From: Candidatus Omnitrophota bacterium
Lineage (GTDB): Bacteria; Omnitrophota; Gorgyraeia; Zapsychrales; Fredricksoniimonadaceae
Direction: 5' to 3'
NCBI GenBank assembly: GCA_963828495.1
Contig: CAWHFJ010000016.1
Span: 85,353-149,352 of the forward strand
DNA length: 64,000 nucleotides
The notes beneath the pieces are model-generated. The model saw only the letters and a list, made by a program, of their open reading frames with translations, ran no database searches and was not told the DNA's origin. Each line of letters opens with the position of its first letter. The first letter of the stretch is position 1. Positions 12,335 to 49,756 of the stretch are shown piece by piece. The translations under genes were made by a program, and so were the position numbers.

Positions 12335-12347
12335 GTCGGGCCTCCCT

Positions 12348-13139
12348 TTACGCTCCCCGTCCCTTTAGCACTTCCTCAACCGCCTCAAGCAAATCCTTAG
12401 GATCAACAAATTCAACAAAACGGTCTATCCCTTCTTTTTCCCCGATTTTTTGGGAGATAGTATGCCTTTGAGCATTTTTTGCTGTATACAAAACATATTT
12501 CACATTCATGGTTTTGGCCATCCTTTTTAATTTGAAAATCACCGAATCCCCGGAAATATCAACTAATCCCCATTGCACCAAAACTACATCGGGCACTGTA
12601 TGAGAGACCCGTTTAATACCCTCCGTACCGTTTTGTGCCGGATTAACAATATAACCGGCATTTAAGAAAACAGATCCGATTTTGTCCAACATTTCAAGAT
12701 CATTCTCGATAATACATATTTCACTTGGTTCTCGCGCCCCTAATAATGCTGTTCCAACCCCGGCATTTGATTTTTTTTGGATTATGATTTCAACCTCATG
12801 AAGTAAATCAGCAATTTCAAACGGCTTAGTCATAAATCCATCAATATCCAATTGTTTAAAAAGCTGCTCCATATTGGCACGGGCGGTCAACACCAAAACC
12901 GGATAGCTTGGGCGATCTGTACCCTGACAAATTCTTTGATAAAATTCCACCCCTCCCATTTTGGGCATGTTCATATCAAGGATAATTAAATCCGGTTTTA
13001 CTGTTTCCAATCGGGCTAAACCCTCAATCCCATTAATAGCCGTTTCGACATGATACCCTTTTGACTCCAAGGCAATTTTTACCAACTGCAGCAAATCCTC
13101 CTCATCATCGATTAATAATATTGTCTTTGCGCTGTTCAC
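12348..13139 (-). CDS. Response regulator with a canonical receiver domain plus a second, degenerate receiver-like domain
   Basis: REC1: ILLIDDEEDL...LIILDMNMPKMGG...LTAR...KPF. The second half is REC-like, but Gln replaces the phospho-acceptor residue (DVVLVQWGL). Confidence 0.8.
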   Translation of the reverse strand: MNSAKTILLIDDEEDLLQLVKIALESKGYHVETAINGIEGLARLETVKPDLIILDMNMPKMGGVEFYQRICQGTDRPSYPVLVLTARANMEQLFKQLDIDGFMTKPFEIADLLHEVEIIIQKKSNAGVGTALLGAREPSEICIIENDLEMLDKIGSVFLNAGYIVNPAQNGTEGIKRVSHTVPDVVLVQWGLVDISGDSVIFKLKRMAKTMNVKYVLYTAKNAQRHTISQKIGEKEGIDRFVEFVDPKDLLEAVEEVLKGRGA

Positions 13140-13183
13140 GATGGTATCCTCCGTTTTTGTAAAGGTTTCACAATGCGCTATCC

Positions 13184-15149
13184 TTAAACTAATGCCGGTA
13201 CATCAATGATCAAAGCGACTTTCCCTGAGCCTAAAATGGTTGCGCCGCCGATGCCTTTGATCCTGGTTAAATTCTTGTCCAATGCTTTGACAATCATATC
13301 TTGCTGATTGCCCAGTCCATCCACCAGTAAACCCGCGGTCTTATTGTTGACGTTAACGACGAGAACAGGCCTATTTTCAGAAAGCCCTTCTGGGGGAAGG
13401 CAATCATCCCCCTTGAATCCCAATTCATCCCGCAGACAAATAAGCGGAATGCTTTGATTGCCATCAACAAGGACTTTTTTGTGATCAATGATTTTAATGG
13501 ATTCACCCGTTCCATAAACTATTTTCACTATATTAACGACGGGAATGGCGTATATTTGATGGTGGATCTCGACCATAAGGCCTTGGAGTATGGTCATGCT
13601 CACCGGAAGACTTATGCTGAAGGTGGAACCCATCAAAGGACGCGTCTCAATGGCAAAAGAGCCGCCGAGGCGTTGGAGGTTTTTTTTGACGATATCCATC
13701 CCCACCCCTCGCCCTGAAGTTTGTGTCACTTCTTCGGCAGTCGAAAACCCCGGAGCCACAATCAGCATCACGGCCTCTTGGTCACTCAGGCTTAATGCTT
13801 CCTCATCCGTTATCAATCCCATGCTCACAGCCTTGGTTTTGAGGCGTTGAATATCCATCCCGTTGCCGTCATCCGTCAATCTCGATTAATACCCTGCCCC
13901 TTTCTTTCCTGATTTGAATTTTAATGAGCCCTGAAGGGTCCTTTCCTTTTTGCTGACGGATGGCGGGTAGCTCGATGCCATGGTCAACACAATTGCGTAA
14001 AATATGGACTAACGGATCTTTGATCTCATCCAAAATAACCCGATCTAACCCTATCTCTGCCCCCACAATTTCTAAATTAACCTGTTTGCCTTCGCTCTTG
14101 GCCAAGTCCCTGACCATGCGCGGAAAATGGTCACAGATCGTTGCCATAGGAAAAAGACGTACATTCATGACTTGGGTTTGTAATTCAGACATCAATCGGT
14201 GCATAACTGACAAATGGTCCGAAAAATCCACATTTCCCGCCCTTTGAGCTATCGTTTCCAATTGCATTTTGTTAATGACCAATTCTCCGACTAAATTAAC
14301 AATAGTGTCTAATTGTTCTACAGACACGCGAATACTCTGCACTGAAGAAGCCATGCCTGGCGGGCTTGGAGTGCTTGCAGCAGCCTTGAGTGGCTCGGCC
14401 GGCATGAGTTGGAAATCAACAAACTCCACATCCTGAATAGACTCAATCTCCTTCTTGATGTCCTCGATGTGGCCTTTGGTCATGAAAAAAACAACAAAAC
14501 TCTTACCAAATTGGGCATTTTTGATTTGATTGTGGACATAGGCCTCATTAAGAATTTTTCCCGCTTCTTGCAAAACCTTTAAAATGACGAAGGACCTGGC
14601 TTCAGGCATCGCACAATCTTTATTAAGGACTATTTTAGTAATATAGGTGCCGATCCCTTCCAGGGCGGCTTTGGCAATAACAATTTTATCGTCATCATTA
14701 ATGCGCACCATCCGCCTTTCCGCGAAAGGGTCGGCCTGAATTTTTATTGAATCTGCTACGCTAGATGTCATTTTATTTAATCTCTTGACCACATCATCAA
14801 TTTTATCTGTGGCAACCCCAACAGAGGGGTCTTGTGATCCCGCTTGAGCGACTAACCGGGCCAACGCATCAAATGCCTCAAAGAGAACAGAGCAGATTTC
14901 CTGATCGACTCTGGATGGATTTCCCCGCAAAGCATCCAGCAGGTTTTCCATCTCATGGGATAATCGCACGATCTGGGGGTAGTTCATCGTTGCGGCCATG
15001 CCTTTTAAAGTATGGGCCATCCGGAAAATTTCATTCAAAATATCCACGGATGAAGGGGTTTTCTCCAGTTGGACAAGTAAATTATTCAACGATTGAAGTG
15101 TCTCGATCGCTTCGCTCTTAAAAAGATCCTGGTATTGAGAGGCGTCCAT
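13184..15149 (-). pseudogene. cheA: Chemotaxis histidine kinase CheA (Hpt, dimerisation, HATPase and CheW-like domains), frameshifted as assembled
   Basis: Hpt motif FRMAHTLKGMAATM; IRVSVEQLDTIVNLVGELV; DPLVHILRNCVDHGIE; then DDGNGMD...GRGVGMDIVKKNL and a CheW-like tail. The two ORFs join at ~13872-13880 (...RVLIEI / TDDGNGMD). Confidence 0.9.
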
Positions 15150-15154
15150 AGTCT

Positions 15155-15520
15155 TTACTCTTTTAATATCCTTTTTATTTCAGCAATAACAGCATTGGCT
15201 TCGAAAGGCTTGAGCAAAAAACCTTTGGCTCCCGCCTGAAGGGCATCGACGACCATAGCTTGCTTGCCCATGGCTGTCACCATCAACACTTTAGCATTAC
15301 GGTCCAAATTAATGATGTCTCTGAGCACTTCCAAACCAGTCTGGCCTGTCATCACTACGTCCATCGTGACTAAATCAGGAAGCAATTCTTTAAATTTCCC
15401 CATAGCTTGCTGGCCATTTTCAGCCTCACCAACAACCTCATAGCCATTAGTCGTTAAGATATCGCGTAATGCCATACGCATAAAAGCTGAATCATCAACA
15501 ATAAGAATTCTTTTACCCAC
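15155..15520 (-). CDS. cheY: CheY-like single-domain response regulator
   Basis: 121 aa with ILIVDDSAFMR...LVTMDVVMTGQTG...VTAMG...LLKPF. Confidence 0.85.
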   Translation of the reverse strand: MGKRILIVDDSAFMRMALRDILTTNGYEVVGEAENGQQAMGKFKELLPDLVTMDVVMTGQTGLEVLRDIINLDRNAKVLMVTAMGKQAMVVDALQAGAKGFLLKPFEANAVIAEIKRILKE

Positions 15521-15899
15521 TTTGACTTTTCCCCCCTAATATCCGCTCTACAGTTCTAATGACCAGATCTTCTTGGAACGGCTTTACTATAAAATCACAA
15601 GCACCTGCGGTGAGCATTTCGGTAATAACGGATTGCCGGCCAAGGGAAGAAATCATAAGGATCTTCGCCTGTGGGTTCTGGTGCATAATGCCCCGGATAG
15701 CCCCTAAAGTATCGATCCCCGATTCTTGCGGCATCTCAATGTCCAGAGTCATTAAATCCGGTTTTAAAACACTAAACTTCTCCATAGCCTCTTTGGCGTT
15801 GGGCCCTTCTCCGACAATCTCATGCCCTCCAGCGACAAGAATATCGATTAACAATTTACGCATAAACAGTGCGTCATCAACAATAAGGATCCGGGCCAT
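15513..15899 (-). CDS. Second CheY-like single-domain response regulator
   Basis: 128 aa with ILIVDDALFMR...LMTLDIEMPQESG...ISSLG...IVKPF. It overlaps the next cheY by 8 nt. Confidence 0.85.
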   Translation of the reverse strand: MARILIVDDALFMRKLLIDILVAGGHEIVGEGPNAKEAMEKFSVLKPDLMTLDIEMPQESGIDTLGAIRGIMHQNPQAKILMISSLGRQSVITEMLTAGACDFIVKPFQEDLVIRTVERILGGKSQSG

Positions 15900-15906
15900 A
15901 TACCCC

Positions 15907-16267
15907 CTATATAAATTTTGAAAAAATCTTCTCTATATCCAATATAACCATCGACTTCCCATCCGCCGGGACCTTAACCACATCAAACCTGTCCACCACA
16001 AACCCAAAAACTCTTTTTCTTAATTCAATAAAAATGATCCGGGCGGTTTTGGGCATTTCTGCCATAGGCGTACAACAAAACTGCCCGGTCCCAATTGACC
16101 ACGACAATAACTTGGCCTCGTAAATTGACCACCCCTCTAATAAAACCCTCAGGATCATTGATCACCGTCATATCCATCACTCCGGTGATCTCACGGATAT
16201 AGGCGATTTCAACCCCAAACTCTTCCTCATGCAGGCGAAAAATCACCACCTCAATGGCCTGAGTCAT
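15907..16267 (-). pseudogene. cheW: CheW-like coupling protein (short), frameshifted as assembled
   Basis: VVIFRLHEEEFGVEIAYIREI...GVVNLRGQVIVVVN in one frame, then ...TARIIFIELRKRVFGFVVDRFDVVKV...ILDIEKIF in the next. The junction is near 16086-16096. Its ATG overlaps the MCP stop (ATGA). Confidence 0.75.
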
Positions 16268-17391
16268 AACTGTTTAACCAACTCTTGTAAGTCGTGCGCC
16301 ATCTGCTCCATTTGTCGGGCCGCAGAAGATAATTGCTGTTTGACAATAGCTGTCTTTTCCTCAATGGAGGTGTCGGTATCCTGAGAGGCCACAACCTCTT
16401 CTTCCGCTGTCGTGGCCACCTGCACAATGGATTTAAAAACAATGCTGACGGATTCTCGAGTATCCTTGGCCACCCGGTCAATTTGATTAATAACCGTACT
16501 TACATCCGTTATTTTTTGAACGATCTGTTCAAATGAATTATCCGCTTGCAAGACCGCTTCCTTGCCGTCATGGACAAATTTATAAACATTCTTCATCGAT
16601 TCTACTGTCCCGGAAATTTCGGTATTAACGCTTTTGATCAAAGTACTGATCCCTTCTGCCGCTTGAGCGGAATTTTCCGCTAATTTGCGCACTTCTTCAG
16701 CCACTACGGCAAACCCTCTACCGGCTTCCCCGGCACGCGCAGCCTCTATGGAAGCATTTAAGGACAATAGATTGGTTTGTTCGGCAATGTGTGTAATCAC
16801 TTTCACAATATTGCCGATCTGGTCGGATTGCTGGCCCAAATGTTGCACCAAATTGGAAGAATCCGTTGATGAGGTATATATACTGTTCATGACTTCAATG
16901 GTCTTCCTGGATTTCTCGCGACCAACAAGAGCGTATTTCGACGATTCATCCGTGACTTTTAAAGCCTCGGTGGTGCATCCATAAAATGTGTCCACATTTT
17001 TGTTAAGACGGGACACTTCGATGGATACGTGCTGGACTTTTTCCGCCTGTTTTTCCATCCCTTGAGCGATTTGTCGGGAGCCAGCGGAAATTTTTTCTTT
17101 AACAGCATCCACGGCAGGGTTGGCTGATGCAAGGCCCCCGCTGAGATTAACCATTTGCTGGGCATAATTTCTCACATGAATGACAATTTTATTTAACTCT
17201 TTGACGATGTCCCTGACCAATAAAAAAGCTATCATCACCATCACCATAAGAATACAGTCGGTTACGATCATGGTCTGCCCATTTCTCAGTGCGCCCATGA
17301 CCTGATAGGCACAAAGGCCGACAAACAAAATCGCTACCAGGCCAAAACTTAAGAATATTTTCTTGCGTATGAACATTACAATCCTTTCCAT
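16264..17391 (-). CDS. Methyl-accepting chemotaxis protein with a minimal extracytoplasmic loop
   Basis: Signalling hairpin [39 protein letters not shown]. Two N-terminal TM segments are separated by about 7 residues, and no recognisable ligand-binding domain is present. Confidence 0.9.
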
Positions 17392-17424
17392 TGATCTTAA
17401 ATGTACCCGGCATCAATCATAAGA

Positions 17425-18312
17425 TCAATTTTGCCGCAACATAAGAACAATGTCCTTTGTCCCATCAAAAAGAACAACCTCGCCCGGTCTGATGGCCTTG
17501 ACCGTTGACGAGCCGACGACAGAGCCGATTGTAACAACTAGATCATTGATAATGGCACTGGGCTTTTGTTCATTCCAGAATATCCCGCTTAAATCATATG
17601 TCACGACACTTGTATTGTCTTTTTTCCCCTCTTCTTTTTTAACTATCCGGCGAGGCATAGAAGTATCATCAAACGGATTACGTTCACCCCAAGCCATGGC
17701 GGTTTTCACGGGGGCCTGGGTCATAGCATACGCCTTGATCAAAGAAAGCACTTGCTTGTGGGAGACCGATGAGGCCTTGCCTTCCTTCTTTGATGGGAAT
17801 GCCGATTTTAAACAAATATACATATGTATTTTGGCTTTTAATTTGTCAGGTTCTTGCGTGTCCCTCATTATTTGAAAACTATCAATCAGGACAATCCCTC
17901 GAGTGAGATCATTTAAAGCTCCTAAAAACCACCCCCATTGTTTATATGTCGTTCGTATTTCCAGATCGATAGGTAGTGTATTGATCTTTTTATAAGACAA
18001 TTTACTTTTATCCTGGTTAACCACTGACAAAAAAGTTATGGCGTGGGCATTGCCAAGATCTGTGATCTCTTGCATAACGATGGCAGCGTCATTCAACGCA
18101 ACCAACGACGCCTCAGAACGATTGTGATCCCGGGTCTTTATGAAGTCATCGATGAGCCCCGCATCTTTGACTAAAATACTCTCCCGGCTATCAAACCCCT
18201 GGGCGCGATACATCATGGGCAAAAGCACCAACAGGATGACGGCGGCGGCCCCCAGCAGGGTCACGGTCACAATCAAGGCAATCTGTTCATTAATCATCTT
18301 CCCCATGTTCAT
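17425..18312 (-). CDS. PilO/PilP-like (GspM/GspC-like) assembly protein
   Basis: N-terminal TM segment. The C-terminus YDLSGIFWNEQKPSAIINDLVVTIGSVVGSSTVKAIRPGEVVLF matches the PilP/GspC-type beta-domain pattern (L.GI....P.AiIng..v..Gd.i.g..V..I....V.l). It overlaps the PilMN gene by 4 nt. Confidence 0.5.
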   Translation of the reverse strand: MNMGKMINEQIALIVTVTLLGAAAVILLVLLPMMYRAQGFDSRESILVKDAGLIDDFIKTRDHNRSEASLVALNDAAIVMQEITDLGNAHAITFLSVVNQDKSKLSYKKINTLPIDLEIRTTYKQWGWFLGALNDLTRGIVLIDSFQIMRDTQEPDKLKAKIHMYICLKSAFPSKKEGKASSVSHKQVLSLIKAYAMTQAPVKTAMAWGERNPFDDTSMPRRIVKKEEGKKDNTSVVTYDLSGIFWNEQKPSAIINDLVVTIGSVVGSSTVKAIRPGEVVLFDGTKDIVLMLRQN

Positions 18313-19934
18313 TCTTTCACCGCCTCAACGCTGGCCACAATTTCAAACTCAAATTTATCCGCTTCATCTTTGACTTTTTTCAAAAGCTTCAAGTGGGCGT
18401 CTTTTAAGGAATTTTCCCGTAAACTTAAAATAAAATGGGCTAATGTGGCTTGAGAACCCGCCTCTAACAAGGCCACCCCTTTGATATGTAGCTGATGATC
18501 GCTTAAATTTAATTCGTCCAGATAAATAGCCCGAGGCATATGACTAAAGACTTTAAAAATTTCTCCCCAGGCAGGCCTCCCTTCCTTTAACTGACGCACG
18601 GCCAAGATATCTCGGACTTGCGTCAAGCGAGGCGCCAATTGCTGATCTTTAACCCTGAGCTGTTGGTCCTTGAGTTGAATCTGATTACTTAAAAATAGTA
18701 AAACAGCCGTTATCATGACTATGATGGCTATTATTAATGCTTTTAAGGGCCCCGCTTCGATGCGACGTTGCTTTTTCTTGCCTAATCCCCTTGATAATAA
18801 ATTAATCCCCTGTAGCCTCCCCAAAGCTGCCCCAATAGCCAAGACCTGTTTCGAAGCGTCATCCGTATTGATCAAGGATGGGTCAAGCACATCTATCCCC
18901 TCAAGAAGATTACTACATGTCACTCCCAACCCCAGATGACCGCTTAAAAATTCATCCAGTCTTTTTAATCGGGATGCCTCTCCAACAAGCAGTAGGCGAT
19001 CAACCTTGCTCCCTTGTAATTCTTCCCGGTAATAATCAAAAGACCTGTTGATCTCCGTGGCGAGCCCTTCGATCTTGGGGGCCATCAACATAAGAATCTG
19101 TGGGGAGGTGATTTTGGCGTTGATGAGTATTGGTTCATCGGGCTTGGGGATACCGTATTCTTTCACGATCTCTTGCGCCTCCCCAAGGGTCAACTCCGTT
19201 TTTCCTGTATCCGAAAAAAAAGTCCCGGTCATACTTTGGATAACATCCTCTGCGGTCATGGATAATTTACGGGAAAATTCCAAATGAGAATTGCGATAAA
19301 TAGCCAGCTCGGTCAGAGTTGATTGCAATACTATGACGGCCAATGTTTCGTCGGTCTTCAATTGGGACCTGCCGATCAGATTCTCCAAGGCGATCGCGGC
19401 GGGAATGCAGGAAGCCACCTTGATGTGAGCTGCCACAAACAGACCTTGCATCCTTTCAATAGTTTTACCGGGGACCACCGCCACCAAAACGTTATACCGT
19501 TCCTTCCCCTGATGAGAAAACTTATTGACCAACCGAAAATCCAGGACAGCTTCATCTAAAGAAAACGGAAAGGCATTCTTGAGTGCCAATTGCACCGCTG
19601 GGCCTAATTCCTCCAACGGCATGAGGGGTGTCGTGATCTTTCTGACAAAAACTTGCGGATCATGGAATGTACAAATAATGGTCGCAGCCCGAAGAGAAAA
19701 GCCGGATAGAACACCCTTTAATGCCGATGCGATTGCCGCATCTGCAAGCACCCCCTCTTTTAGGCTGATGGTTTGCCCAGCGGTCCTAATGAGTGTCGAA
19801 CGCCCTTTATAATTGACTACCTGCGCGGCATTTACCGAAGATGTGTCGATATGCAAACCGATCACGGATTTACCTGTGCCTAATTTGCTCTGAAGTAAAG
19901 CCACATCGGGTTTCATATTGAATTGAGCCCCCAA
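18309..19934 (-). CDS. PilM-PilN fusion (actin-like ATPase-fold assembly protein plus a TM/PilN-like C-terminal region; analogue of GspL/GspM)
   Basis: 541 aa. PilM-like N-terminus (VIGLHIDTSSVNAAQV...), a TM segment (ALIIAIIVMITAVLLFL), then a coiled-coil and PilN-like tail. Confidence 0.7.
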   Translation of the reverse strand: MGAQFNMKPDVALLQSKLGTGKSVIGLHIDTSSVNAAQVVNYKGRSTLIRTAGQTISLKEGVLADAAIASALKGVLSGFSLRAATIICTFHDPQVFVRKITTPLMPLEELGPAVQLALKNAFPFSLDEAVLDFRLVNKFSHQGKERYNVLVAVVPGKTIERMQGLFVAAHIKVASCIPAAIALENLIGRSQLKTDETLAVIVLQSTLTELAIYRNSHLEFSRKLSMTAEDVIQSMTGTFFSDTGKTELTLGEAQEIVKEYGIPKPDEPILINAKITSPQILMLMAPKIEGLATEINRSFDYYREELQGSKVDRLLLVGEASRLKRLDEFLSGHLGLGVTCSNLLEGIDVLDPSLINTDDASKQVLAIGAALGRLQGINLLSRGLGKKKQRRIEAGPLKALIIAIIVMITAVLLFLSNQIQLKDQQLRVKDQQLAPRLTQVRDILAVRQLKEGRPAWGEIFKVFSHMPRAIYLDELNLSDHQLHIKGVALLEAGSQATLAHFILSLRENSLKDAHLKLLKKVKDEADKFEFEIVASVEAVKE

Positions 19935-20889: not shown

Positions 20890-20897
20890 GTTATTCT

Positions 20898-21720: not shown

Positions 21721-21748
21721 TTTCTCCTTTTTAGTATTTATTAGCGTT

Positions 21749-22966: not shown

Positions 22967-22981
22967 AGCTTGAAGACCTCC

Positions 22982-24589: not shown

Positions 24590-24596
24590 GGGTCAT

Positions 24597-26303
24597 CTAC
24601 TTTTGTATCGCCTCAAGCATTGCTTGGGCTTCGTGACAATAAGAACTATTAGGAAATCTCTCCAGCAACTTTTTTAAGGTCTGGCGGGCCGCTTCGGACT
24701 TGTGAAAAACAGTGCTATAGATCTGGGCAATTCTATATAGGCAATAATCTGCCTTGGGAGAATCGGGGAATTGCCTGTAGATTGTTTGATACGTCTCAAG
24801 CATTTCACTATATTTAAACAGATCGGACGCCTCCGGTTTTACCCCGCCGATATCTGTTTCTATGCTCTGTATATAAGCAAACATCTTGTCTTGCGCATAC
24901 TGATCCCCATTATGCACATAATCGGGGCTATACACATTTAACTTTATTAACGGATTATGATTCATCACATCGGAAGCACGGACGATGTGAGGTGTGATAA
25001 AAACTGTCAGTTCGGTATTTTCCTTGTCTGCGCTTCGATTAGAGAATAGCCAGCCTATAAGGGGTATGGAACGTAAAAATGGGACACCGGATTTGGTGCG
25101 GTCATCTATTTTGTTGATCAACCCCCCGATAATAATGGTTTCATTGTCCCTCACGCGGATCGTTGAATCTGCCTCACGCGTGGTGATACTGGGGCCCGCC
25201 GGCAAGGAAGCGAGTATGGATGAGACTTCCGGATGGATTTTCATCGTTATCCATCCGTCGGGGGAAACCATAGGCGTGACTCTTAACATGGTGCCCACAT
25301 CAACAAACATGGTCGTTTGAGTATTGCCCACAGGTGTCGTCGTCGTCTGCAGAAAAGGAAAACGTTCACCAATATTAATCTTGGCTTCTTTGCCGTTTAA
25401 TGTAGCAATAGAGGGAGATGCCAAAAGATGGGCCTTGTTGTGCTGGATCAAAGCATCCAATTGAACATTAAGAGCCAAACTCTTAAACGTCGGCGTTACA
25501 TTGATTTGATTTCCCGGTATATTAGTCGAAGGACCGGCCAAATTAGTGCCCAGAGCGACACTTTGCGTGCTATCTTGGGCAAGAGTGCCCGGAGCCGATG
25601 TGACCGTCGATGTTGATGTCCCTGTTGAGGCCCCTGTCGAGGTGCCTTTAGCATCAAAAGTTGAGTTGATCACAGTCCCCAGATTCTCATAATCTTTAGA
25701 TTCTATATCCACGATCTTGGCTTCAATCAATACTTGAATAGGGGCAACGTCGAACTCAGCAAGGATCTGTTTGACTTTTTTAATACTTTCCGGGACATCC
25801 ACAACCACCAGGCTATTGGTGGCTTCGTTGATCTGAATGTCCCCCTGTTTAGAGATGGTTTTGCTTAATAACTGTTTGGCATCGGCAGCTGCCAAAAAAC
25901 TTAAATGAAACACTTCAGCGATCGTTTCCATATCGCCGGCGCGCATAACATAAATAATATCGTCCTTGCGCAGGAACCTGTAACCGTTCACCTTTAAAAT
26001 CGCATTTAAAACCTCATCAATGGTGATGTTCTGCAGGTGCGCAGAAACTTTCCCCTGCACATTTCCCGTCATCACCAAATTTAAATTAAAAGAATAGGAG
26101 AGCGCTTGGAGAACAGAAACCAAATTGGCTTCATGGTAATCAATCGAGAGCTTTTTACTTTGCGGGTCAACGGTCAAACCTTTGTTGTCAACGGTGCTAT
26201 GTGTATAGGGAGTGCCGACCGCCTGCTCTTGGGCATTAGCCAAAAGAGAAAACCAAAATAAATTATAAATAACAAATATAATGAAAAGAATGTCTTTCAT
26301 CAC
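24597..26303 (-). CDS. Secretin (GspD/PilQ family) with a fused C-terminal TPR-like extension
   Basis: Signal peptide, N-domains (NSLVVVDVPESIKKVKQILAEFD) and a secretin core (LASPSIATLNGKEAKINIG...VPFLRSIPLIGWLFS...ELTVFITPHIV). This is followed by ~110 aa ending FPDSPKADYCLYRIAQIY...LLERFPNSSYCHEAQAMLEAIQK (YbgF/PilF-like helices). Confidence 0.88.
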   Translation of the reverse strand: MMKDILFIIFVIYNLFWFSLLANAQEQAVGTPYTHSTVDNKGLTVDPQSKKLSIDYHEANLVSVLQALSYSFNLNLVMTGNVQGKVSAHLQNITIDEVLNAILKVNGYRFLRKDDIIYVMRAGDMETIAEVFHLSFLAAADAKQLLSKTISKQGDIQINEATNSLVVVDVPESIKKVKQILAEFDVAPIQVLIEAKIVDIESKDYENLGTVINSTFDAKGTSTGASTGTSTSTVTSAPGTLAQDSTQSVALGTNLAGPSTNIPGNQINVTPTFKSLALNVQLDALIQHNKAHLLASPSIATLNGKEAKINIGERFPFLQTTTTPVGNTQTTMFVDVGTMLRVTPMVSPDGWITMKIHPEVSSILASLPAGPSITTREADSTIRVRDNETIIIGGLINKIDDRTKSGVPFLRSIPLIGWLFSNRSADKENTELTVFITPHIVRASDVMNHNPLIKLNVYSPDYVHNGDQYAQDKMFAYIQSIETDIGGVKPEASDLFKYSEMLETYQTIYRQFPDSPKADYCLYRIAQIYSTVFHKSEAARQTLKKLLERFPNSSYCHEAQAMLEAIQK

Positions 26304-26677
26304 TTTGCCCTCTTTTCGATGATCGCATCAACCTGACGGACCAACTCATCAATCTCAAACGGTTTGGCTATAAACCCATCAACGTTCATCTGCACCAGAA
26401 GCTGTTCCAAATTAGTCCGGGCCGTGAGCACTAAAACAGGATATAAAGGGTGGTCCTGGCCACTACAGATCTTTTGGTAGAACCCCAAGCCGCCAAGCTT
26501 GGGCATATTCATGTCTAAAATAATTAAATCCGGCTTGATTGTCTCCAATTTGCTCAAAGCTTCAAGGCCGTTGTTCGCCGTCTCAACAATATACCCTCTG
26601 ACTTTTAACGTAATCTTGGTCAACTGTTGCAAATCGATGTCATCATCGATTAACAATATCATCTTTGAATCGGGCAT
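26300..26677 (-). CDS. Single-domain response regulator, first gene of the secretion operon
   Basis: ILLIDDDIDL...LIILDMNMPKLGG...LTAR...AKPF. Its stop overlaps the secretin start by 4 nt. Confidence 0.85.
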   Translation of the reverse strand: MPDSKMILLIDDDIDLQQLTKITLKVRGYIVETANNGLEALSKLETIKPDLIILDMNMPKLGGLGFYQKICSGQDHPLYPVLVLTARTNLEQLLVQMNVDGFIAKPFEIDELVRQVDAIIEKRAK

Positions 26678-26720
26678 ATAGTGACCCCTTTAATAACATG
26701 AGGTTTGGCTAAAGTTTTTT

Positions 26721-26805
26721 ATATATAGACATAAAATATTTTACATACCCCCCATTAACTAGTAAAGTTCTTTCCCATATATAAATGTAAAGTATTTTGC
26801 ATACC
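26721..26805 (-). promoter_or_regulatory. Two 29-nt direct repeats, 56 bp apart, in the 147-bp gap upstream of the secretion operon. Candidate operator or duplicated promoter elements.
   Basis: 26721-26749 ATATATAGACATAAAATATTTTACATACC versus 26777-26805 ATATATAAATGTAAAGTATTTTGCATACC (23 of 29 identical). This is the only sizeable non-coding gap near the operon start. Confidence 0.3.
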
Positions 26806-26824
26806 ACAAAATCTAAGTGGCGAC

Positions 26825-27190
26825 TTAAAACGTCCGATTAACTAAATCGACCAACTCTTGGTCATTAAATGGTTTTTGTAAAAACCCCACGGCCCCTGCT
26901 TTTAAAGCCTGTTCCTTAAGGCCGCCATCTTTATCCGCCGTAATAATAATGACCGGACGGTTAGCCCCTGATTTCATCAGTTTTTGCTGTGCTGCCCACC
27001 CGTTTAATCCCGGCATATGAATGTCCATGATTAAACACCCCAAAGCACTGTTCGACACAGCGCTAAAAAAATCCTCCGCGCTAGGGAAAGTTTCTACTGC
27101 AAACCCGTAAGTCCCCATAAGTAATTTCAAAGAGCGACACACAGACTCGTCATCATCCACAATGTAAATTTGTTTTTTGTCTAAAGGCAT
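26825..27190 (-). CDS. Single-domain response regulator
   Basis: IYIVDDDESVCRS...CLIMDIHMPGLNG...ITADKD...LQKPF. Confidence 0.85.
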   Translation of the reverse strand: MPLDKKQIYIVDDDESVCRSLKLLMGTYGFAVETFPSAEDFFSAVSNSALGCLIMDIHMPGLNGWAAQQKLMKSGANRPVIIITADKDGGLKEQALKAGAVGFLQKPFNDQELVDLVNRTF

Positions 27191-27223
27191 TTCATCACTC
27201 TCCTTAAGTTGTCGTTCTTGCGG

Positions 27224-28792
27224 TTATCCGTCTGCCTGTCCTTTGGCTGACTGCAATCTTTCAAAAAATCTATTTTTATCAAAATCACAGTTCCATTTTC
27301 TTATGATGATCCATCCCATAAAACGGATTAAATCGTTCCGCCAGTGCCGATACCATCCCTCCCACCCCTGCTTAATGTTATGTAAAAATAAAACTAACTT
27401 AGGGAATGTTAATATATCCAGCCCTATTTTAAAAAAATAGCCGAACTGATAAAAAGACGCCATAATTTTTCTCTGCGCCGCCTGCATGCCTTCAGCGGTC
27501 AGTGGCGCGTCAGGTGCAAAAACCGGGAAATTCCCGTCATAATATTCCCAGCCAACATCATGAACATCATAAATCCGATGTTGCGCCCGAAGCCTTTGGC
27601 TTAATTGCGTTCCCGGCAACGGGACGGGGAGCAAAATTTGAATAGTATCGATACGCGCTTTTCTAATAAATGTCCGGTAGCGTTTCACCCTCTGGCTTGC
27701 CGTCATATCAAAACACTGTCCTTCTTCAAGGGGATATCCAAAAATAAACATCCCGTGCACTAAAAACCCGAATTGGTGGAAAATTCTTGTGAAGGATAAC
27801 ATCTCTTCAGGCTTGATATGTTTGTTCATGGCATTTAATTCTTCAGCAATCGGAGATTCAAAACCAATACAAACCATGTTTATGCCTGCCTGGCGCATCG
27901 CTAAAAGAAGTTCCGGGTCCTTGGCCTTATCCAGCCTTATCTGTGCCGTAAAATCGAGCCGTTTACCAATGTGTTTTTGATAATCCCGAAGCTCATAGCA
28001 AAGTTGCACTGTCTCATTGCGATGCTGCCCAAAAAGGTCATCAATAATAAAAAAATGCCGCGCAGCCCTTGTTTCGACTAAAAGTCTGACCTGTTCAAGC
28101 AGCCGGTCAGGACAAGCGGCCCGAGGCTTCCCCTTGACGGTACAGAACTCGCAATCCATGCCGCATCCCCGGATACGCTCGACCGGATAAACCTTTAAAC
28201 GGGCATACCTCACCAGAGAAAAATCCGGCAGAGGCAATTTGTCAAAATCAAGCAAAGGTTCTCTCTCAGGGGTGAGGACCAGTTCTGTGTTTTTTAAAAA
28301 CGCAATGCCTTTCACCTGGGTGATATCACGTTGCCCTTCGATGGCCTCCAAAAGCTCCTGAATGGTCTCTTCGCCCTCTCCTATAACAATGTAGTCGATC
28401 CCATGAGACAAGGCGTCCATAATATTATCGCCCACAAAATGCTGACCGCCGGCGATCGTGACCACTCCCTGATCTTTGTAAAATTGTGCGACCTTATAAA
28501 GACGCGGAATAGTGCTGGTTAACCCGCCATAAAATCCAACCACATCCGCAGGCCTTTGTTGCTGCAAAAATTCGTGATCAGCTCCCCCCTCCTTCCCCCT
28601 TGGCCCATGCAAGCAGAGATTGTTTTCATCAATCACCTCAACATCCCACTTATGCATTTTGTTAACATTCGTGGCCACATAAACCGGACCTAAAGCCGTT
28701 GTCCTGGATGCCATGTCTGAATAAATATTAAATGCCGGATAAGCAGGCGTGACCATGCGAAATCTATATCTTTTCTTCAATGTATCCAACAT
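27224..28792 (-). CDS. B12-binding-domain radical SAM protein
   Basis: The N-terminal cobalamin-binding-type Rossmann region (VVGFYGGLTSTIPRLYKVAQF...IAGGQHF...YIVIGEGEETIQELLEAI) is followed by CGMDCEFC (CxxxCxxC). 522 aa. Confidence 0.8.
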   Translation of the reverse strand: MLDTLKKRYRFRMVTPAYPAFNIYSDMASRTTALGPVYVATNVNKMHKWDVEVIDENNLCLHGPRGKEGGADHEFLQQQRPADVVGFYGGLTSTIPRLYKVAQFYKDQGVVTIAGGQHFVGDNIMDALSHGIDYIVIGEGEETIQELLEAIEGQRDITQVKGIAFLKNTELVLTPEREPLLDFDKLPLPDFSLVRYARLKVYPVERIRGCGMDCEFCTVKGKPRAACPDRLLEQVRLLVETRAARHFFIIDDLFGQHRNETVQLCYELRDYQKHIGKRLDFTAQIRLDKAKDPELLLAMRQAGINMVCIGFESPIAEELNAMNKHIKPEEMLSFTRIFHQFGFLVHGMFIFGYPLEEGQCFDMTASQRVKRYRTFIRKARIDTIQILLPVPLPGTQLSQRLRAQHRIYDVHDVGWEYYDGNFPVFAPDAPLTAEGMQAAQRKIMASFYQFGYFFKIGLDILTFPKLVLFLHNIKQGWEGWYRHWRNDLIRFMGWIIIRKWNCDFDKNRFFERLQSAKGQADG

Positions 28793-28929
28793 AACTCCCC
28801 TCCTTATTTGTCTTTATAATATTGATAATATTCTAGGAAGGGATCAAAAATGAATCAATTGTACCAAGGTATAATAGATGGAAATTGAAGAAGTGACTAC
28901 GGATGGTTACTTTTAGATGCCGGGACACC

Positions 28930-30081
28930 TTATATTGTTATCTCCCTTCTTTCCTGAATGGGTAAAATAAAACTAAAGGTGGTCCCTTCTCCTTCTGTCG
29001 ATTCAACCCAAATCTTGCCTCCATGCCGCTCTATAATCTGCCGGCAAATAGCCAATCCCAAACCTGTCCCTCCTTCTTCGTTACTTTCTGCGGATTCAAT
29101 CTGCTGGAATTTTTCAAAAATTTTGGGCATACCTGATTGTGCAATCCCTCTGCCCGTGTCTTTGACAGTAATGATAATATGGTTGCTTTCTGTTTTATTG
29201 ATGCTGGTTATCGTAATGCCCCCCTTTTTGGTAAACTTAATAGCATTATTCAAAAGATTGTTCAACACCTGGGTTATCCGGTCACTATCAAAAAAAACCA
29301 ACGGTAAATGCTCGTCTAATTCCAGCTTGACATACAACCCCCTGCTGGCGGCGACGTCTTTCTGGGATTCAACGGTCTCTTGAATGACCTGGTTAATATT
29401 ATTGACCATAAAATTCATATCTAATTTACCTGATTCCATTTTAGATAGGTCTAAAATATCGTCTATCAACCGCTTCAGGCGGTCGACATTATTTTTGGCG
29501 CGTTGTAACACGTCTGCCTGTTGGGGGGTAATTTCTCCCACCATTTTCCTGATGACTAAATCAACGGCCGTTTTAATAGAGGCTAAAGGGGTACGCAATT
29601 CATGAGAAACCGTGGAGGTAAATTCTTTTTGCATTTCATACATGGCCTTTAATTTCTTGTTACTCAATTCTAATTCTTCTTCTTTGGTCCTGGCCTTCAG
29701 CAATAAATCATAATGTTCAATACACTGACGGATAGTAGACAATAATTCCGTCGTTTTCCATGGTTTACTGATAAACCGATACACTTCACCTACATTGATG
29801 GCCTCTTCCGCGGCGGAAAAGTCCGTATAACCGGTAAAAAGGACCTTGACCGTGTCCGGATAATGCTCTTTAACTTCCTGTAAAAATTGGGTGCCCGATA
29901 TATCCGGCATACGATAATCACTGACGACCACCTTTATTTTATATTTTGCCAGCGCCGCGCGCGCATCCGCCACTTTCGTGGTCGCAAAAATTTCATAGGG
30001 CTCTCTTATGAATAACCGTTTAACCCCGTCGATGATACTTTCTTCATCATCTAAAAACAAAACCTGAATTTCTTTAGGCAT
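28930..30081 (-). CDS. Hybrid receiver-histidine kinase (REC, HisKA, HATPase_c)
   Basis: REC: VLFLDDEESI...VVVSDYRMPDISG...SKPW. H-box STVSHELRTPLASI; NLLNNAIKFT, DTGRGI, GGTGLGLAICRQI. Confidence 0.88.
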   Translation of the reverse strand: MPKEIQVLFLDDEESIIDGVKRLFIREPYEIFATTKVADARAALAKYKIKVVVSDYRMPDISGTQFLQEVKEHYPDTVKVLFTGYTDFSAAEEAINVGEVYRFISKPWKTTELLSTIRQCIEHYDLLLKARTKEEELELSNKKLKAMYEMQKEFTSTVSHELRTPLASIKTAVDLVIRKMVGEITPQQADVLQRAKNNVDRLKRLIDDILDLSKMESGKLDMNFMVNNINQVIQETVESQKDVAASRGLYVKLELDEHLPLVFFDSDRITQVLNNLLNNAIKFTKKGGITITSINKTESNHIIITVKDTGRGIAQSGMPKIFEKFQQIESAESNEEGGTGLGLAICRQIIERHGGKIWVESTEGEGTTFSFILPIQERREITI

Positions 30082-30092
30082 ACGTTATCCTT

Positions 30093-31337
30093 TTAAGGCA
30101 TAGGCAAAGAAACTGTAAACGTGGATCCTTCCCCCTCTTGTGATCGGACCCTTATCTGCCCCCCGTGTTTTTTAATAATTTCATAACTGACACTTAAGCC
30201 CAATCCTGTCCCTTGACCCACAGGCTTAGTGGTAAAAAACGGATCAAATATTTTCTTTAAATGCTCAGGCTTAATCCCCTTACCTGTGTCTTTTATATCC
30301 ACACACACATTCTTGTCTTTGACATAAGTTTTGATCTCAATGGTCCCCTTGCCATCCATAGCTTGCGCCGCATTGAGCAATACGTTCATAAAAACCTGTC
30401 CTAATCTCTGGGGGCTTCCCTTAATAAGAGGCGTGTCTGCGTAATCCTTTTTCAAGTCAACCTTAGCCCCTAGTTCGTTGTAAACAATACTCAGCAGACT
30501 ATCGAGCACCTCTTCAATTTTTATCAGGTTCAGGATACCGGCATCTTCACGGGCGAATGTGCGTAAATCCGTCACAACTTTCTGGATCCTCTCGACCCCT
30601 TTTTGAGTTTGTTGAAATAATTTATGCAAATCGTCTGTCATATATTTCAAATCTATATATTGGCTAAACGACTTGATCTCTCCCACCACCTCTCTGGATT
30701 TCTTAAGGTCCCCCTGTTCAATGGCGAGTATCAAATCGTCGTAGATACCTAAAATCTTGGTATAGTCATCGATATAAATAGCCAGCATTTCCAAATTGTT
30801 GTTGATAAACCCTATAGGATTATTGATCTCATGCGCAACCCCTGCGGCTAATTGACCAATAGCCGCAAACTTCTCTGATTGTAAAAGCTGTGCTTGGGCA
30901 GACGCCAGGGCCTTCTCCATCCGCTTGGTCTCGGTGATGTCCTCATAAACTCCTAAAATTCCAATTGAATTTCCATCCAAATCTATTAGAGGCATTTTGC
31001 TTGTTTTTATCCAGATTTTATCTCCTTTGGGAGTGGTTTGAGGTTCTTCAAAATTGAATTTTGCTTTTCCTGACTGTATGACTGCCCGATCATCGTTTTG
31101 ATATATTTTAGCCTGCTCTTTCCAGCCCATCTGGAAATCATCCTTGCCAATCAGGTCTTCCGATCTGTTTTTACCTGCATCTTTAGCAAAAATCTCGTTG
31201 CAGCCCATATACCTTAAATCTTTATCTTTCCAGAATATCCTTATCGGAAGAAGGTCAATTATTTTCTGTAAGAACCTTTGAGAATCCTTACTTTTTTCAA
31301 GACGGCCCATAGGCAGCACCCCCTCTTTATTCCCCAA
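30093..31337 (-). CDS. PAS-domain sensor histidine kinase (cytoplasmic)
   Basis: PAS-like N-terminus (IFWKDKDLRYMGCNEIFAKDAG...), H-box [42 protein letters not shown]. It is paralogous to the kinase core at 10537-12334. Confidence 0.88.
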   Translation of the reverse strand: MGNKEGVLPMGRLEKSKDSQRFLQKIIDLLPIRIFWKDKDLRYMGCNEIFAKDAGKNRSEDLIGKDDFQMGWKEQAKIYQNDDRAVIQSGKAKFNFEEPQTTPKGDKIWIKTSKMPLIDLDGNSIGILGVYEDITETKRMEKALASAQAQLLQSEKFAAIGQLAAGVAHEINNPIGFINNNLEMLAIYIDDYTKILGIYDDLILAIEQGDLKKSREVVGEIKSFSQYIDLKYMTDDLHKLFQQTQKGVERIQKVVTDLRTFAREDAGILNLIKIEEVLDSLLSIVYNELGAKVDLKKDYADTPLIKGSPQRLGQVFMNVLLNAAQAMDGKGTIEIKTYVKDKNVCVDIKDTGKGIKPEHLKKIFDPFFTTKPVGQGTGLGLSVSYEIIKKHGGQIRVRSQEGEGSTFTVSLPMP

Positions 31338-31917
31338 GTAATTTCTCTATTTTTATTTTCAAATCCTTATTGCTAAAAGGTTTCGCGAGATAATCATCCG
31401 CCCCTGACTCTTGAATACGCCTGGTTTCTTTTGGTCCAATAATGCCCGACACTAAAAGTATTTTTACATTTTTATCTTTTTGATTACTGCGGATACGCGC
31501 ACATACCTGATAGCCGTCTAATTGCGGCATCCTGATGTCTAAAATGATTAAATCGGGTTGAAAATCAGCAAATTTGTGCCCCGCTTCAAAACCATCAAAC
31601 GCCACTTCCAAGTCATATATCTTTTCCCTTTTAAGAAACCGTTGGATAGTGTCCACCATACCTCTATCATCATCAACGATCAAAATACGTTTCCTGCCGG
31701 TGCCATTGTTACCCATTAAATCCGAAGGAACAGGCATCTGGTATCTGTGCAGAAAATCCAAAAATTCTTCTGCCTTAATCCTGCTATGGTTGCCCGGAGT
31801 ACGAAAGGCTTTTAATTTCCCTTCATTAATCCACTGCACTACTGTCCGTCCGGTGACATAACAATATTGGGCAATGTCATGTGTTGTAAAAATTCTCTCG
31901 CTCATCGTTGACCTCAC
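31327..31917 (-). CDS. Response regulator with an N-terminal excisionase/MerR-type HTH and a C-terminal receiver domain
   Basis: HTH: TTHDIAQYCYVTGRTVVQWINEGKLKAFRTPGNHSRI. REC: ILIVDDDRGM...LIILDIRMPQLDG...VSG...LAKPF. Confidence 0.8.
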   Translation of the reverse strand: MRSTMSERIFTTHDIAQYCYVTGRTVVQWINEGKLKAFRTPGNHSRIKAEEFLDFLHRYQMPVPSDLMGNNGTGRKRILIVDDDRGMVDTIQRFLKREKIYDLEVAFDGFEAGHKFADFQPDLIILDIRMPQLDGYQVCARIRSNQKDKNVKILLVSGIIGPKETRRIQESGADDYLAKPFSNKDLKIKIEKLLGE

Positions 31918-32408
31918 ATTTTTATTAAAAGTTTCTTTACTAATCCCAATAGCGCATCAATCTCATAAGGTTTACCTAAAGTTTGATATGTCCGGCCGTC
32001 TATATTTACCCCGGTTTCTTCCACATCTTCTTCTCCGCTTGAAATAAGTCCTGTTAAAAATACGACAGGGATATCCTTTAAGTGGCCATCTGCCTTTAAA
32101 TTCCTAACCGCTTCGGGGCCGCTGATGCCGGGCATCACAATGTCCATTAAAATCAAATCCGGGTTACGCGCTTTTATCTCTTCTATAATATTCACAGCGG
32201 AATGTAAAATAGAGGCCTGATAGCCTTTTGTCATTAAAGCGGTCTTAGTTAACTGGGCTAAATCTTTATCGTCATCAATAATCAGTATTTTGGCCATGCC
32301 GTCCTCCTCATGAGTAATCTCGCATATATCCTTCTTTTCTTGATTCTCCTGTTTCTCCTGTTTCAAACTATACCCTATAATGGGCGCTTTGTCAAGCCAA
32401 TTGGCCAA
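31914..32408 (-). CDS. Single-domain response regulator (the start may be the internal MAKILIID)
   Basis: ILIIDDDKDLAQL...LILMDIVMPGISG...LTG...GKPY. The first ~37 codons (a KQEKQENQEKK-rich stretch) may be untranslated. Confidence 0.8.
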   Translation of the reverse strand: MANWLDKAPIIGYSLKQEKQENQEKKDICEITHEEDGMAKILIIDDDKDLAQLTKTALMTKGYQASILHSAVNIIEEIKARNPDLILMDIVMPGISGPEAVRNLKADGHLKDIPVVFLTGLISSGEEDVEETGVNIDGRTYQTLGKPYEIDALLGLVKKLLIKM

Positions 32409-35864: not shown

Positions 35865-35971
35865 AGAAATATCCACAGATCGTTGTATCAACAAAAATAT
35901 CCGGGTATTCTACAATAAAAGATATGATATTTAAAACAAAAATAATATGGGGTCGGAAAAACCGGAGAGGC

Positions 35972-43244: not shown

Positions 43245-43336
43245 TGGCGGAGAAGGAGAGATTCGAACTCTCGAGACGCCTTTCGACGTCCACACGCTTT
43301 CCAGGCGTGCGCCTTAAACCACTCGGCCACCTCTCC
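43245..43336 (-). tRNA. tRNA-Ser (anticodon GGA), CCA-encoded, with a long variable arm
   Basis: Hand-folded. Acceptor GGAGAGG/CTTCTCC; anticodon stem-loop CACGC-CTGGAAA-GCGTG; variable arm TGGACGTCGAAAGGCGTCTC; T-arm GAGAG-TTCGAAT-CTCTC; discriminator G plus CCA. 92 nt. Confidence 0.9.
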
Positions 43337-49753: not shown

Positions 49754-49756
49754 ATA

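Follow-up and report, generated by a model that had tools for sequence, protein, structure and literature searches.

The window analysed here is a stretch of 64,000 nucleotides (nt) from the Candidatus Omnitrophota bacterium assembly GCA_963828495.1 (contig CAWHFJ010000016.1, positions 85,353 to 149,352), in which nearly all coding lies on the minus strand. Our subject is a cluster of genes at 10537-32408, all of them on that strand, in which the genes of an assembly machine of the type IV filament kind run directly into those of a chemosensory (Che) pathway. Domains were called with Pfam and NCBIfam on every open reading frame (ORF) at 10.5-32.9 kb, and over the whole window the Pfam scan covered 54 ORFs, three of them short fragments and the other 51 drawn from the 79 that reach 110 amino acids (aa); the remaining 28 of that length, 14 on each strand, lay outside it. 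Read in the direction of transcription, the central string of genes begins with a single-domain response regulator (RR), RR125 (26300-26677), whose stop overlaps the start of the secretin gene (24597-26303), which encodes an STN/N0 domain, one Secretin_N, the secretin domain and a C-terminal TPR. These are followed by a PilB/GspE-like assembly ATPase with an MshEN-type N-terminus (22982-24589; T2SSE 437 bits, MshEN 70 bits), a GspF/PilC inner-membrane platform protein (21749-22966; T2SSF), a 149-aa major pilin or pseudopilin whose leader MMKCNRG precedes FTLVE (21271-21720; N_methyl 36 bits, T2SSG E = 0.0013), and three minor pilin-like proteins of 129, 170 and 155 aa (19913-21287; the 129-aa protein with an N_methyl match and GFTILE). 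The machine ends with a PilM-PilN fusion, hereafter PilMN (18309-19934; PilM_2 70 bits, PilN 21 bits), and a 295-aa protein, PilO-P, in which PilO (31 bits) is joined to a PilP/GspC-HR-like C-terminal domain (17425-18312). The Che genes then encode a methyl-accepting chemotaxis protein (MCP; 16264-17391; MCPsignal 146 bits), CheW (15907-16267; two CheW half-matches), two single-domain RRs with Response_reg matches, CheY1 (15513-15899) and CheY2 (15155-15520), and CheA (13184-15149), whose two halves together give Hpt, P2, dimerisation, HATPase and CheW domains in Pfam.

An earlier note on this DNA had listed these genes with their neighbours, and each of them was recovered at its place on the minus strand by the ORF list, Pfam and NCBIfam. 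Its description of tight junctions interrupted by two larger gaps likewise holds, as the genes of the cluster overlap or are separated by at most 48 nt except at two places, where the gaps measure 137 and 147 nt; the cluster is presumably co-transcribed. The same note had seen no retraction ATPase (PilT), prepilin peptidase, CheB or CheR, and none of the four is among the 54 Pfam-scanned ORFs; tblastn of the whole window returned no paralogue of the T2SSE-family ATPase, and the Pfam-scanned ORFs gave no second T2SSE match.

Three genes of the cluster, namely CheW, CheA and a dCache sensor histidine kinase (HK) whose position is lineage-specific (10537-12334; dCache_1, HATPase_c), are each broken into two ORFs in the window by private 1-nt insertions at 16093, 13877 and 12117, respectively. 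A further 1-nt insertion at 16270 changes the C-terminus of the MCP, and the window CheW also carries a 3-nt deletion near 15988-15992. The earlier note was right that the three genes are present, but it had read through the three frameshifts unremarked. None of these indels is present in L045-L047, three independent short-read assemblies from the window's species that are 99.4-99.7% identical to the window in nucleotides; there CheW (120 aa), CheA (654 aa) and the kinase (598 aa) are intact, and for this reason we read the frameshifts as probable assembly errors and take the genes to be whole in the organism itself. The Che module as a pseudogene remnant was ruled out on the same grounds. In another contig of the species (L057) the breaks are others, in the gene of the receiver-kinase REC-HK (described below), in PilMN and in both CheY genes, with CheA and CheW intact, and two genes of the window outside the cluster, MdoG (32715-35894) and a Pif1/RecD-like helicase (46493-49774), are each split into three pieces. 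Since the indels differ in L057 and unrelated genes are split as well, the pattern fits random indel errors of assembly, and the window would derive from an indel-prone long-read assembly. As further observations, the last MdoG piece is joined in-frame to an MdoH-like glycosyltransferase ORF, and many additional overlapping pairs of minus-strand ORFs suggest indel errors throughout the window.

Related loci, to which we refer by L numbers, were found by searching for the PilMN fusion, which has 47 relatives among 5.8 billion proteins; gene neighbourhoods were retrieved for these and for the relatives of CheA, and condensed to gene-order strings. A common string of RR, secretin, ATPase, platform, four to six pilins, PilMN, PilO(-P), MCP, CheW, CheY, CheY and CheA, with or without CheC, is present in seven lineages with PilMN proteins 55-100% identical (to the window: L049 77%, L001 69%, L048 63%, L050/L055 59%, L056 56% and L003/L054 55%), and the genes that flank it are entirely different from lineage to lineage. 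The search for synteny in related genomes, which the earlier note had proposed as a check, thus returned a linkage that persists while its surroundings change, and because the same order recurs in seven lineages, the adjacency of machine and Che genes appears to be more than chance. A metagenome scan yielded no lineages beyond those already found.

The packing of the Che genes against the 3' end of the machine, also remarked upon before, extends to the relatives. The gap between PilO-P and MCP is 33-48 nt in the window, 31-86 nt in L001, L003 and L049, and 0 nt in L048 and L050, where the first base after the PilO-P stop is the start of the MCP gene, and inside the Che module the genes overlap or lie 2-8 nt apart in the window, L048 and L050, with gaps of up to ~150 nt in L001/L003. 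CheC follows CheA in three lineages (L001, L003 and L049) and in neither the window nor L048. Both CheY genes, which overlap by 8 nt and whose products are 45% identical to each other, occur in all seven lineages, and across lineages the CheYs are 68-88% identical. RR125, at 82-88% identity in L001, L003, L048, L049 and L055, is the most conserved protein of the cluster but for one ATPase comparison (L049, 91%).

The family to which the machine belongs is wider than the set of loci with this string. A scan of GTDB representatives returned distant members only, from Omnitrophota, Planctomycetia/Scalindua and Elusimicrobia metagenome-assembled genomes (MAGs), and among named organisms the ATPase has its closest relatives in Omnitrophota, at no more than 62% identity. 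In the distant members (PilMN 27-36% identical) the order ATPase, platform, pilins, PilMN, PilO, PilP is common, and they usually lack Che genes and carry a kinase and an RR; where the sequence extends far enough upstream, most loci have an HK and one or two single-domain RRs immediately before the ATPase. In L007 (PilMN 49%) the machine and the genes downstream of it (VTT, CNNM-CBS, OmpA-LysM) correspond to those of L001; MCP, CheW, CheY1, CheA and CheC are missing, and a CheY2-like RR (68%) and a double-receiver protein remain. The Che genes are gained or lost as a cassette. In L034, L040, L041 and L044, which bear Elusimicrobia, 'Clostridia' or unclassified labels, the secretin is followed by a different Che set: CheW, an MCP with HAMP, CheR, CheY, CheB and a CheA that lacks P2 (domains as called by Pfam in L044). 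Since this set is different and the L044 CheA falls outside the CheAs of the window's clade, Che modules would have become attached to the machine family at least twice, or one module would have been swapped for another. Among the wider family we also observed a GIY-YIG domain ORF among the minor pilin genes of L005 (8167-8916), a 421-aa, PilT-sized ATPase of the T2SSE family ~6.5 kb downstream of the machine in the same locus (18220-19485), and, in the uncultured Planctomycetia MAG L016, a second partial set of ATPase, platform, pilin and PilMN genes downstream of ~13 kb, an apparent tandem duplication.

The machine itself combines features of type IVa pili (T4aP) and type II secretion systems (T2SS), as the earlier note had proposed when it described T2SS-like genes with PilMNOP-like alignment proteins, and its NCBIfam scores are split between the two and lie below the equivalog or subfamily cut-offs throughout. 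The ATPase scores 562 bits with GspE (cut-off 630) and 557 bits with PilB (TIGR02538; cut-off 676), the platform 357 bits with GspF (cut-off 424) and 312 with PilC (below its cut-off), and the secretin 245 bits with PilQ (cut-off 284) and 223 with GspD (cut-off 351). Sequences in the PDB favour PilB over GspE and PilQ over GspD, modestly: the ATPase reaches 468 bits with PilB, aligned over residues 6-460, and 393 with GspE, where the alignment begins near residue 80 or 170, and the top match of the secretin, which has no AMIN domains and no N2/N3, is M. xanthus PilQ. The major pilin matches GspG at its N-terminus only (49 bits, cut-off 89) and lacks a C-terminal disulphide pair. Among the alignment proteins, PilMN scores 83 bits with pilM against 21 with GspL, and in Pfam the PilM_2 and PilO matches exceed their cut-offs (27 and 22 bits) and PilN falls just short of its own (22.8 bits). 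PilMN comprises an actin-like cytoplasmic domain, one transmembrane (TM) segment (~391-422) and a periplasmic PilN domain, and most of its complete homologues are 500-565 aa long; a fusion of PilM and PilN is atypical for T4aP, and the architecture is GspL-like, the domain layout of such a fusion being equivalent to that of GspL.

The smaller components are less clear-cut. The prepilin motif G/FT(L/I)(V/L)E is clear in two of the four pilins, one has S at position -1 and one is without E5, the last of these having no Pfam match of its own and only a weak PilX_N match obtained from the L005 gene at the equivalent position. The 170- and 155-aa minor pilins have an N-terminal hydrophobic segment and no Pfam match, and in L005 the position of the 155-aa protein is taken by a 360-aa gene with the weak PilX_N match, the two being paired by position only. 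PilO and the PilP-like protein are two separate genes in L001, L003 and L007 and a single fused gene in L045, L048, L049 and L050. A profile of the PilP-like domain, made from a nine-sequence alignment, gave no meaningful match to PDB sequences, and an AlphaFold2 model of the 295-aa PilO-P from its single sequence was unusable (mean predicted local distance difference test score, pLDDT, of 42).

Set against the definitions of the two systems, the machine agrees fully with neither. With T4aP it shares the PilM, PilN and PilO domains, the PilQ-like secretin, the PilB-like ATPase N-terminus, a short-leader prepilin and minor pilins, and the set PilM, PilN, PilO, PilP and PilQ is complete in a comparison of the TXSScan style (Denise et al. 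2019), PilP being counted by a sub-threshold T2SSC match only. It differs from T4aP in the fusion of PilM to PilN, in the GspG-like pilin without disulphide pair, in the compressed zinc motif of its ATPase (described below) and in a secretin that has a C-terminal TPR in place of AMIN domains. PilT, which is mandatory in the T4aP model (Denise et al. 2019), was not found in the window by tblastn or among the 54 ORFs, and PilD is likewise not nearby. According to the same study (PMC6668835), T4aP loci are usually scattered, whereas pilins in mid-locus are typical of T2SS, in which PilT is often lost; here the pilin does not stand apart, and all components but PilD and PilT form a single string, at the centre of which the pilins lie. 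The likeness to T2SS (GspC-M, GspO) lies in the order of secretin, ATPase, platform, major and then minor pseudopilins and alignment proteins, in the lack of a retraction ATPase, and in the GspF-like platform, the GspG-like pilin and the GspL-like fused architecture. However, the alignment proteins are PilM, PilN and PilO by sequence and not GspL and GspM, the membrane partner matching PilO and not GspM, there is no GspC with its PDZ domain, the secretin has one N-domain, and the equivalog cut-offs of GspE, GspF, GspD and GspG are not reached. We file the system as a putative machine of the type IV filament kind, unclassified, whose core resembles that of T4aP.

Two features of the ATPase deserve mention beside this. 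At residues ~466-477 its tetracysteine zinc motif is compressed to CMDCKGKGCAYC (CxxC-x4-CxxC), and the same compressed form is found in 109 of the 117 full-length sequences among 120 listed ATPase homologues (~55-100% identical), whereas in homologues below ~54% identity the spacer has its usual length of 26-54 residues; the compression looks like a marker of the machine family. Residues 1-60 resemble the MshEN motif for binding cyclic di-GMP (c-di-GMP), at 35 bits in NCBIfam against a cut-off of 38, and they also align with the C-terminal portion of the model for the c-di-GMP-activated glycosyltransferase NfrB; in a comparison by hand they fit the MshEN motif only in part. An Rfam scan of the window found no riboswitch (for example for c-di-GMP) near the cluster, its sole match being one tRNA (43248-43336).

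The Che module is unlike that of the best-known pilus-controlling systems. CheA, which is intact in L045, has one Hpt domain, P2 (PF07194, 47 bits), H-kinase_dim, HATPase_c and CheW domains and no receiver (REC) domain, and PF07194 is the P2 model built on the CheAs of Thermotoga and Bacillus (PMC10782961), so that the protein has the five-domain architecture with Thermotoga/Bacillus-type P2 of the F1 class. A CheA of the Tfp class typically carries several Hpt domains and a C-terminal REC and has no P2 (PMC10782961), and membership of the Tfp class, in the form of the Pil-Chp system, was ruled out on this ground; the two single-domain RR outputs recall PilG and PilH in architecture only. About ten CheAs are at least 56% identical to that of the window, and all of those with known context are linked to the machine. 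The next nearest, P0182 (44%), lies in a CheY-CheD-CheY-CheB-CheA-CheC cluster with four CheC/X genes and no pilus genes, and further named matches come from Negativicutes, Methanoperedens and Firestonebacteria at 37-41% identity. In a neighbour-joining tree the CheAs of the window's clade form one group, the sister group contains P0182, and the L044 CheA falls elsewhere. Comparison with PDB sequences gives a weak indication in the same direction, with 278-281 bits for Thermotoga P3-P5 and 265 for an equally long construct from E. coli. CheC occurs in L001, L003 and L049 and CheD in no member of the clade, and the nearest outgroup cluster has both. From the P2-type CheA with its single Hpt and no REC, the CheC of three lineages and the nearest relatives of CheA, the module would be F1-like in ancestry, of the kind that contains CheC and CheD.

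What it lacks is the methylation-based adaptation by CheB and CheR that belongs to the F1 class: both are absent in the window and in L001, L003, L048, L049 and L050, while the genes of L056 were labelled by BLAST only. The MCP has neither HAMP nor a sensor domain; it forms a TM hairpin whose loop is no longer than 10 aa, and its cytoplasmic arms of ~159 and ~157 aa amount to roughly 44 heptads as estimated from hydropathy and the position of the hairpin tip. Receptors of the 44H class accompany F1 systems.

Chemosensory control of type IV pili is well known from Tfp-class systems (Pil-Chp, and the cyanobacterial Pix/Tax) and from the ACF-class Frz system, in which the Che genes lie apart from the structural genes. 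In the literature that we searched, Che genes lying within the structural operon of a pilus or T2SS are nowhere described, and the earlier note's judgement that the arrangement is non-standard, and unlike Pil-Chp, is upheld also by the CheA with one Hpt and P2 and without REC and by the missing CheB and CheR. With the Pil-Chp system of P. aeruginosa (PilJ, PilI, ChpA, PilG, PilH, PilK, ChpB) the cluster has in common an MCP-CheW-CheA path feeding two single-domain RRs and a type IV filament machine as partner. In that system the cue comes from the pilus itself, and a machine-derived cue would also suit the sensor-less MCP found here. The two Pil-Chp regulators are described as antagonistic (10.1101/2022.11.15.516588), and they offer a model for CheY1 and CheY2. 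The differences are that the MCP here has no periplasmic domain, that relatives carry CheC, that the Che genes lie inside the structural operon and not in a separate locus, and that the closest relatives of CheA are F1-like.

The F1 class (Thermotoga, Bacillus, archaea; with CheC/CheD) shares with the module the P1-P5 CheA with Thermotoga-type P2, the CheC phosphatase of three lineages, MCP arms of ~44 heptads and CheA homologues in Negativicutes and Methanoperedens. In archaea, F1 Che proteins control the archaellum, itself a machine of the type IV filament family, via CheF. Here, by contrast, CheB, CheR and CheD are missing and a single receptor has no sensor domain, no flagellar or archaellar genes lie nearby, no CheF-like adaptor was identified, and the module is embedded in a secretin-containing bacterial operon of the pilus or T2SS-like kind.

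The remaining genes of the cluster are mostly two-component regulators. Upstream of RR125 lie RR164, a 164-aa single-domain RR with REC at residues 41-156 (31914-32408; Response_reg 66 bits), a helix-turn-helix (HTH) regulator with an N-terminal HTH_17 and a C-terminal REC (HTH-REC; 31327-31917; 32 and 88 bits), a PAS sensor HK (30093-31337; PAS_4, HisKA, HATPase_c) directly upstream of a 383-aa hybrid kinase of REC-HisKA-HATPase architecture (REC-HK; 28930-30081), a B12-binding radical SAM enzyme (27224-28792; B12-binding and Radical_SAM matches in Pfam) and the 121-aa single-domain RR121 (26825-27190; Response_reg 91 bits); downstream of CheA a 263-aa REC-REC protein (12348-13139) shows two Response_reg stretches. 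With the dCache kinase this makes four kinases and nine receiver domains, as had been counted from the sequence, with the qualification that the second receiver of REC-REC has no phospho-acceptor Asp. At that position Q, K or N stands in five of the five lineages aligned (window, L001, L003, L007, L050), which marks the domain as a pseudo-receiver, and REC-REC thus combines a receiver with a conserved pseudo-receiver and has no other output domain. Its first receiver is 63% identical to RR125.

Several of these regulators move with the string. REC-HK orthologues, 68-70% identical, adjoin the cluster in L001, L003/L054 and L050/L055, and REC-HK is preceded by a sensor kinase whose sensor domain differs by lineage (dCache-HAMP, HAMP or HAMP-GAF in relatives); the kinase core of the PAS-HK of the window is 55-63% identical to the HK that adjoins REC-HK in L001, L003 and L050. 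REC-REC orthologues, 59-61% identical, co-occur with the cluster in L001, L003, L007 and L050, and both REC-HK and REC-REC stand upstream or downstream of the string, depending on the lineage. The unit that travels, conserved in content and order, tightly packed, intact in the sister assemblies and with its Che cassette gained or lost as a block, is RR125 through CheA, together with the pair of sensor HK and REC-HK and the REC/pseudo-REC protein.

Other genes of the region do not belong to this unit, and the earlier view of the ~20 kb as a single supercluster cannot be kept as it stood, given kinase sensor domains that are swapped between lineages, RR164 and HTH-REC positions that are not conserved in relatives, and radical SAM and RR121 genes confined to one species. 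RR121 and the radical SAM gene were seen only in the window's species (L057-L059), the latter only in contig L057, and the enzyme, which scores far below all NCBIfam cut-offs, has no tblastn match in any related locus. Four related lineages have loci that extend over the stretch upstream of RR125, and neither gene is in them; in L050/L055 this region holds kinases, without a tblastn match to either gene, and the locus of L056 ends short of it. Because they are found only in the window's own species, we regard them as a probable lineage-specific insertion outside the conserved system, and the radical SAM enzyme as a pilin modifier or member of the system was ruled out by its absence from the related lineages whose loci reach that far. 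HTH-REC is possibly a transcriptional regulator of the region. An HTH_17 domain (excisionase/MerR-like) just upstream of the machine recurs in other forms, alone in L005 (1982-2227) and fused to a bactofilin in L049 (1352-2169), and the HTH_17 protein is possibly a transcription factor specific to the cluster.

Elsewhere in the window, a tryptophan-biosynthesis run upstream of the cluster (58656-61675) encodes phosphoribosylanthranilate (PRA) isomerase, indole-glycerol-phosphate (IGP) synthase, anthranilate phosphoribosyltransferase and a glutamine amidotransferase, with a chorismate-binding enzyme separate from it (51543-52268). Two long ORFs, of 1313 aa (53592-57533) and 586 aa (2287-4047), have no Pfam match at E <= 1e-4.

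Taken together, we consider it likely, with some reserve, that the region is one co-inherited functional unit, a type IV filament machine with its own chemosensory module. As we picture it, the machine would span the envelope with its secretin, a single assembly ATPase, the platform, a GspG-like pilin with three minor pilins, PilMN and PilO-P. Its ancestral control, across the family, would consist of an HK and one or two single-domain RRs, represented in the window's clade by the sensor HK, REC-HK, RR125 and the REC/pseudo-REC protein, and this clade would have appended to the 3' end of the operon a chemosensory cassette derived from the F1 type. The array of MCP, CheW and CheA may then read a membrane-proximal or machine-derived cue and not a periplasmic ligand, and CheA would phosphorylate both CheYs. 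We infer that phosphorylated CheY might bind the machine on its cytoplasmic side, at the platform, the N-terminus of the ATPase or the PilM domain, and so switch filament assembly on or off or relocate it; if PilG and PilH are a guide, the second CheY and CheC could serve as an antagonist or as a sink for phosphate. With no methylation system the array would be a non-adapting switch, and the branch formed by the HK, REC-HK and RR125/REC-pseudoREC could supply a second, slower, environmental input. A more specific version, which we put forward only tentatively and think rather doubtful as a whole, holds that an F1-type, non-adapting array drives the machine, that its receptor, having no ligand-binding domain, monitors the machine itself, for instance its pilin pool or the load borne by the PilMN/PilO membrane complex, that phosphorylated CheY docks on PilM or the ATPase, and that this control is independent of Pil-Chp and was assembled at least twice, once in the window's clade and once in an Elusimicrobia-type clade.

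A number of points weigh against this interpretation of the unit. F1-type CheA and CheY normally control flagella or archaella, and flagellar genes elsewhere in the genome could be the real target of CheY. The class of the Che module was drawn from domains, context and nearest matches, and the neighbour-joining tree of CheAs carries no support values. Neither PilT nor a prepilin peptidase is among the 54 Pfam-scanned ORFs of the window, so that the dynamics of the filament cannot be judged from it, and the PilP-like assignment relies on sub-threshold T2SSC matches (E = 0.0014-0.07 for the separate gene of relatives; Pfam E up to 5). Counts of promoters and terminators over 12340-32330 were not above those in shuffled sequence, which makes these scans uninformative on operon structure. 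Finally, the frameshifts in the window's CheW and CheA, if real in that strain, would mean a dead module there.

Three other explanations have to be set beside the co-inherited unit. The machine might function as a T2SS, a short pseudopilus piston that exports folded proteins, with the Che and two-component proteins gating secretion and not the adhesion or motility of a pilus. The platform and the major pilin do have their best NCBIfam matches in GspF and GspG, with GspE about level with PilB for the ATPase, and the pilin without C-terminal disulphide pair, the single locus with pilins in the middle and no PilT (typical of T2SS per PMC6668835) point the same way. So does the GspL domain layout of the PilM-PilN fusion. 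Yet the alignment proteins score far higher as PilM than as GspL (83 against 21 bits) and match PilN and PilO besides, no GspC with a PDZ domain is present, the secretin has STN and one Secretin_N and is closer to PilQ than to GspD, the ATPase aligns with PilB from residue 6, and the cluster holds no candidate exoprotein genes. Omnitrophota systems have moreover been classed as T4aP (Seymour et al. 2023, PMC10066038), in an account that leaves chemotaxis unmentioned and whose clusters may differ from the PilMN type. We rank the pilus reading ahead of the secretion reading, and think the latter unlikely.

It could also be that the adjacency is incidental, an ordinary flagellar chemotaxis operon that by chance follows a pilus operon and is functionally uncoupled from it. 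CheA, CheY and CheC are of the flagellar/archaellar F1 kind, motility-related genes often cluster in bacterial genomes, and the machine and Che genes are only presumed to be co-transcribed, all of which is compatible with such an accident. An accident would hardly, however, have been retained in seven lineages while both flanks changed, with 0-48 nt between machine and MCP in the window, L048 and L050 and 31-86 nt in the other three loci measured. A single sensor-less MCP without CheB, CheR or CheD would be a poor design for gradient chemotaxis, and no flagellar gene was found in the window (54 ORFs, Pfam) or within 10 kb on either side in seven annotated related loci. The Elusimicrobia-type MAGs have a different Che set on the same machine family, and L007 retains a CheY2-like RR beside a machine without CheA. 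We hold incidental adjacency to be quite improbable. More improbable still, to the point of being scarcely credible, is decay, by which the broken genes for CheW, CheA and the Cache kinase would mean that the signalling arm is pseudogenised in this organism: three signalling genes are indeed interrupted in the window, but each of the indels is missing from three independent assemblies of the species, the breaks in L057 lie in different genes, and genes as unrelated as MdoG and the Pif1-like helicase are split too.

If the proposed control of the machine by its own Che module is correct, it would be a bacterial counterpart to the control of the archaellum by CheY in archaea, and if the machine should prove to be a T2SS-like piston, it would amount to chemosensory gating of protein secretion. 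In either case the family, poorly known and from uncultured phyla, would illustrate how a Che cassette, here of flagellar/archaellar type and shorn of adaptation enzymes and sensor domain, came in nature to serve a new output, apparently twice within one machine family, and its compact set of 16 to 20 genes (RR125 to CheA, plus CheC, REC-HK and REC/pseudo-REC where present) would be a place to find the target of CheY on a type IV filament machine. The arrangement may thus bear on how attachment organelles are regulated in Omnitrophota-like and Elusimicrobia-like bacteria, which have often been proposed to be host-attached or predatory.

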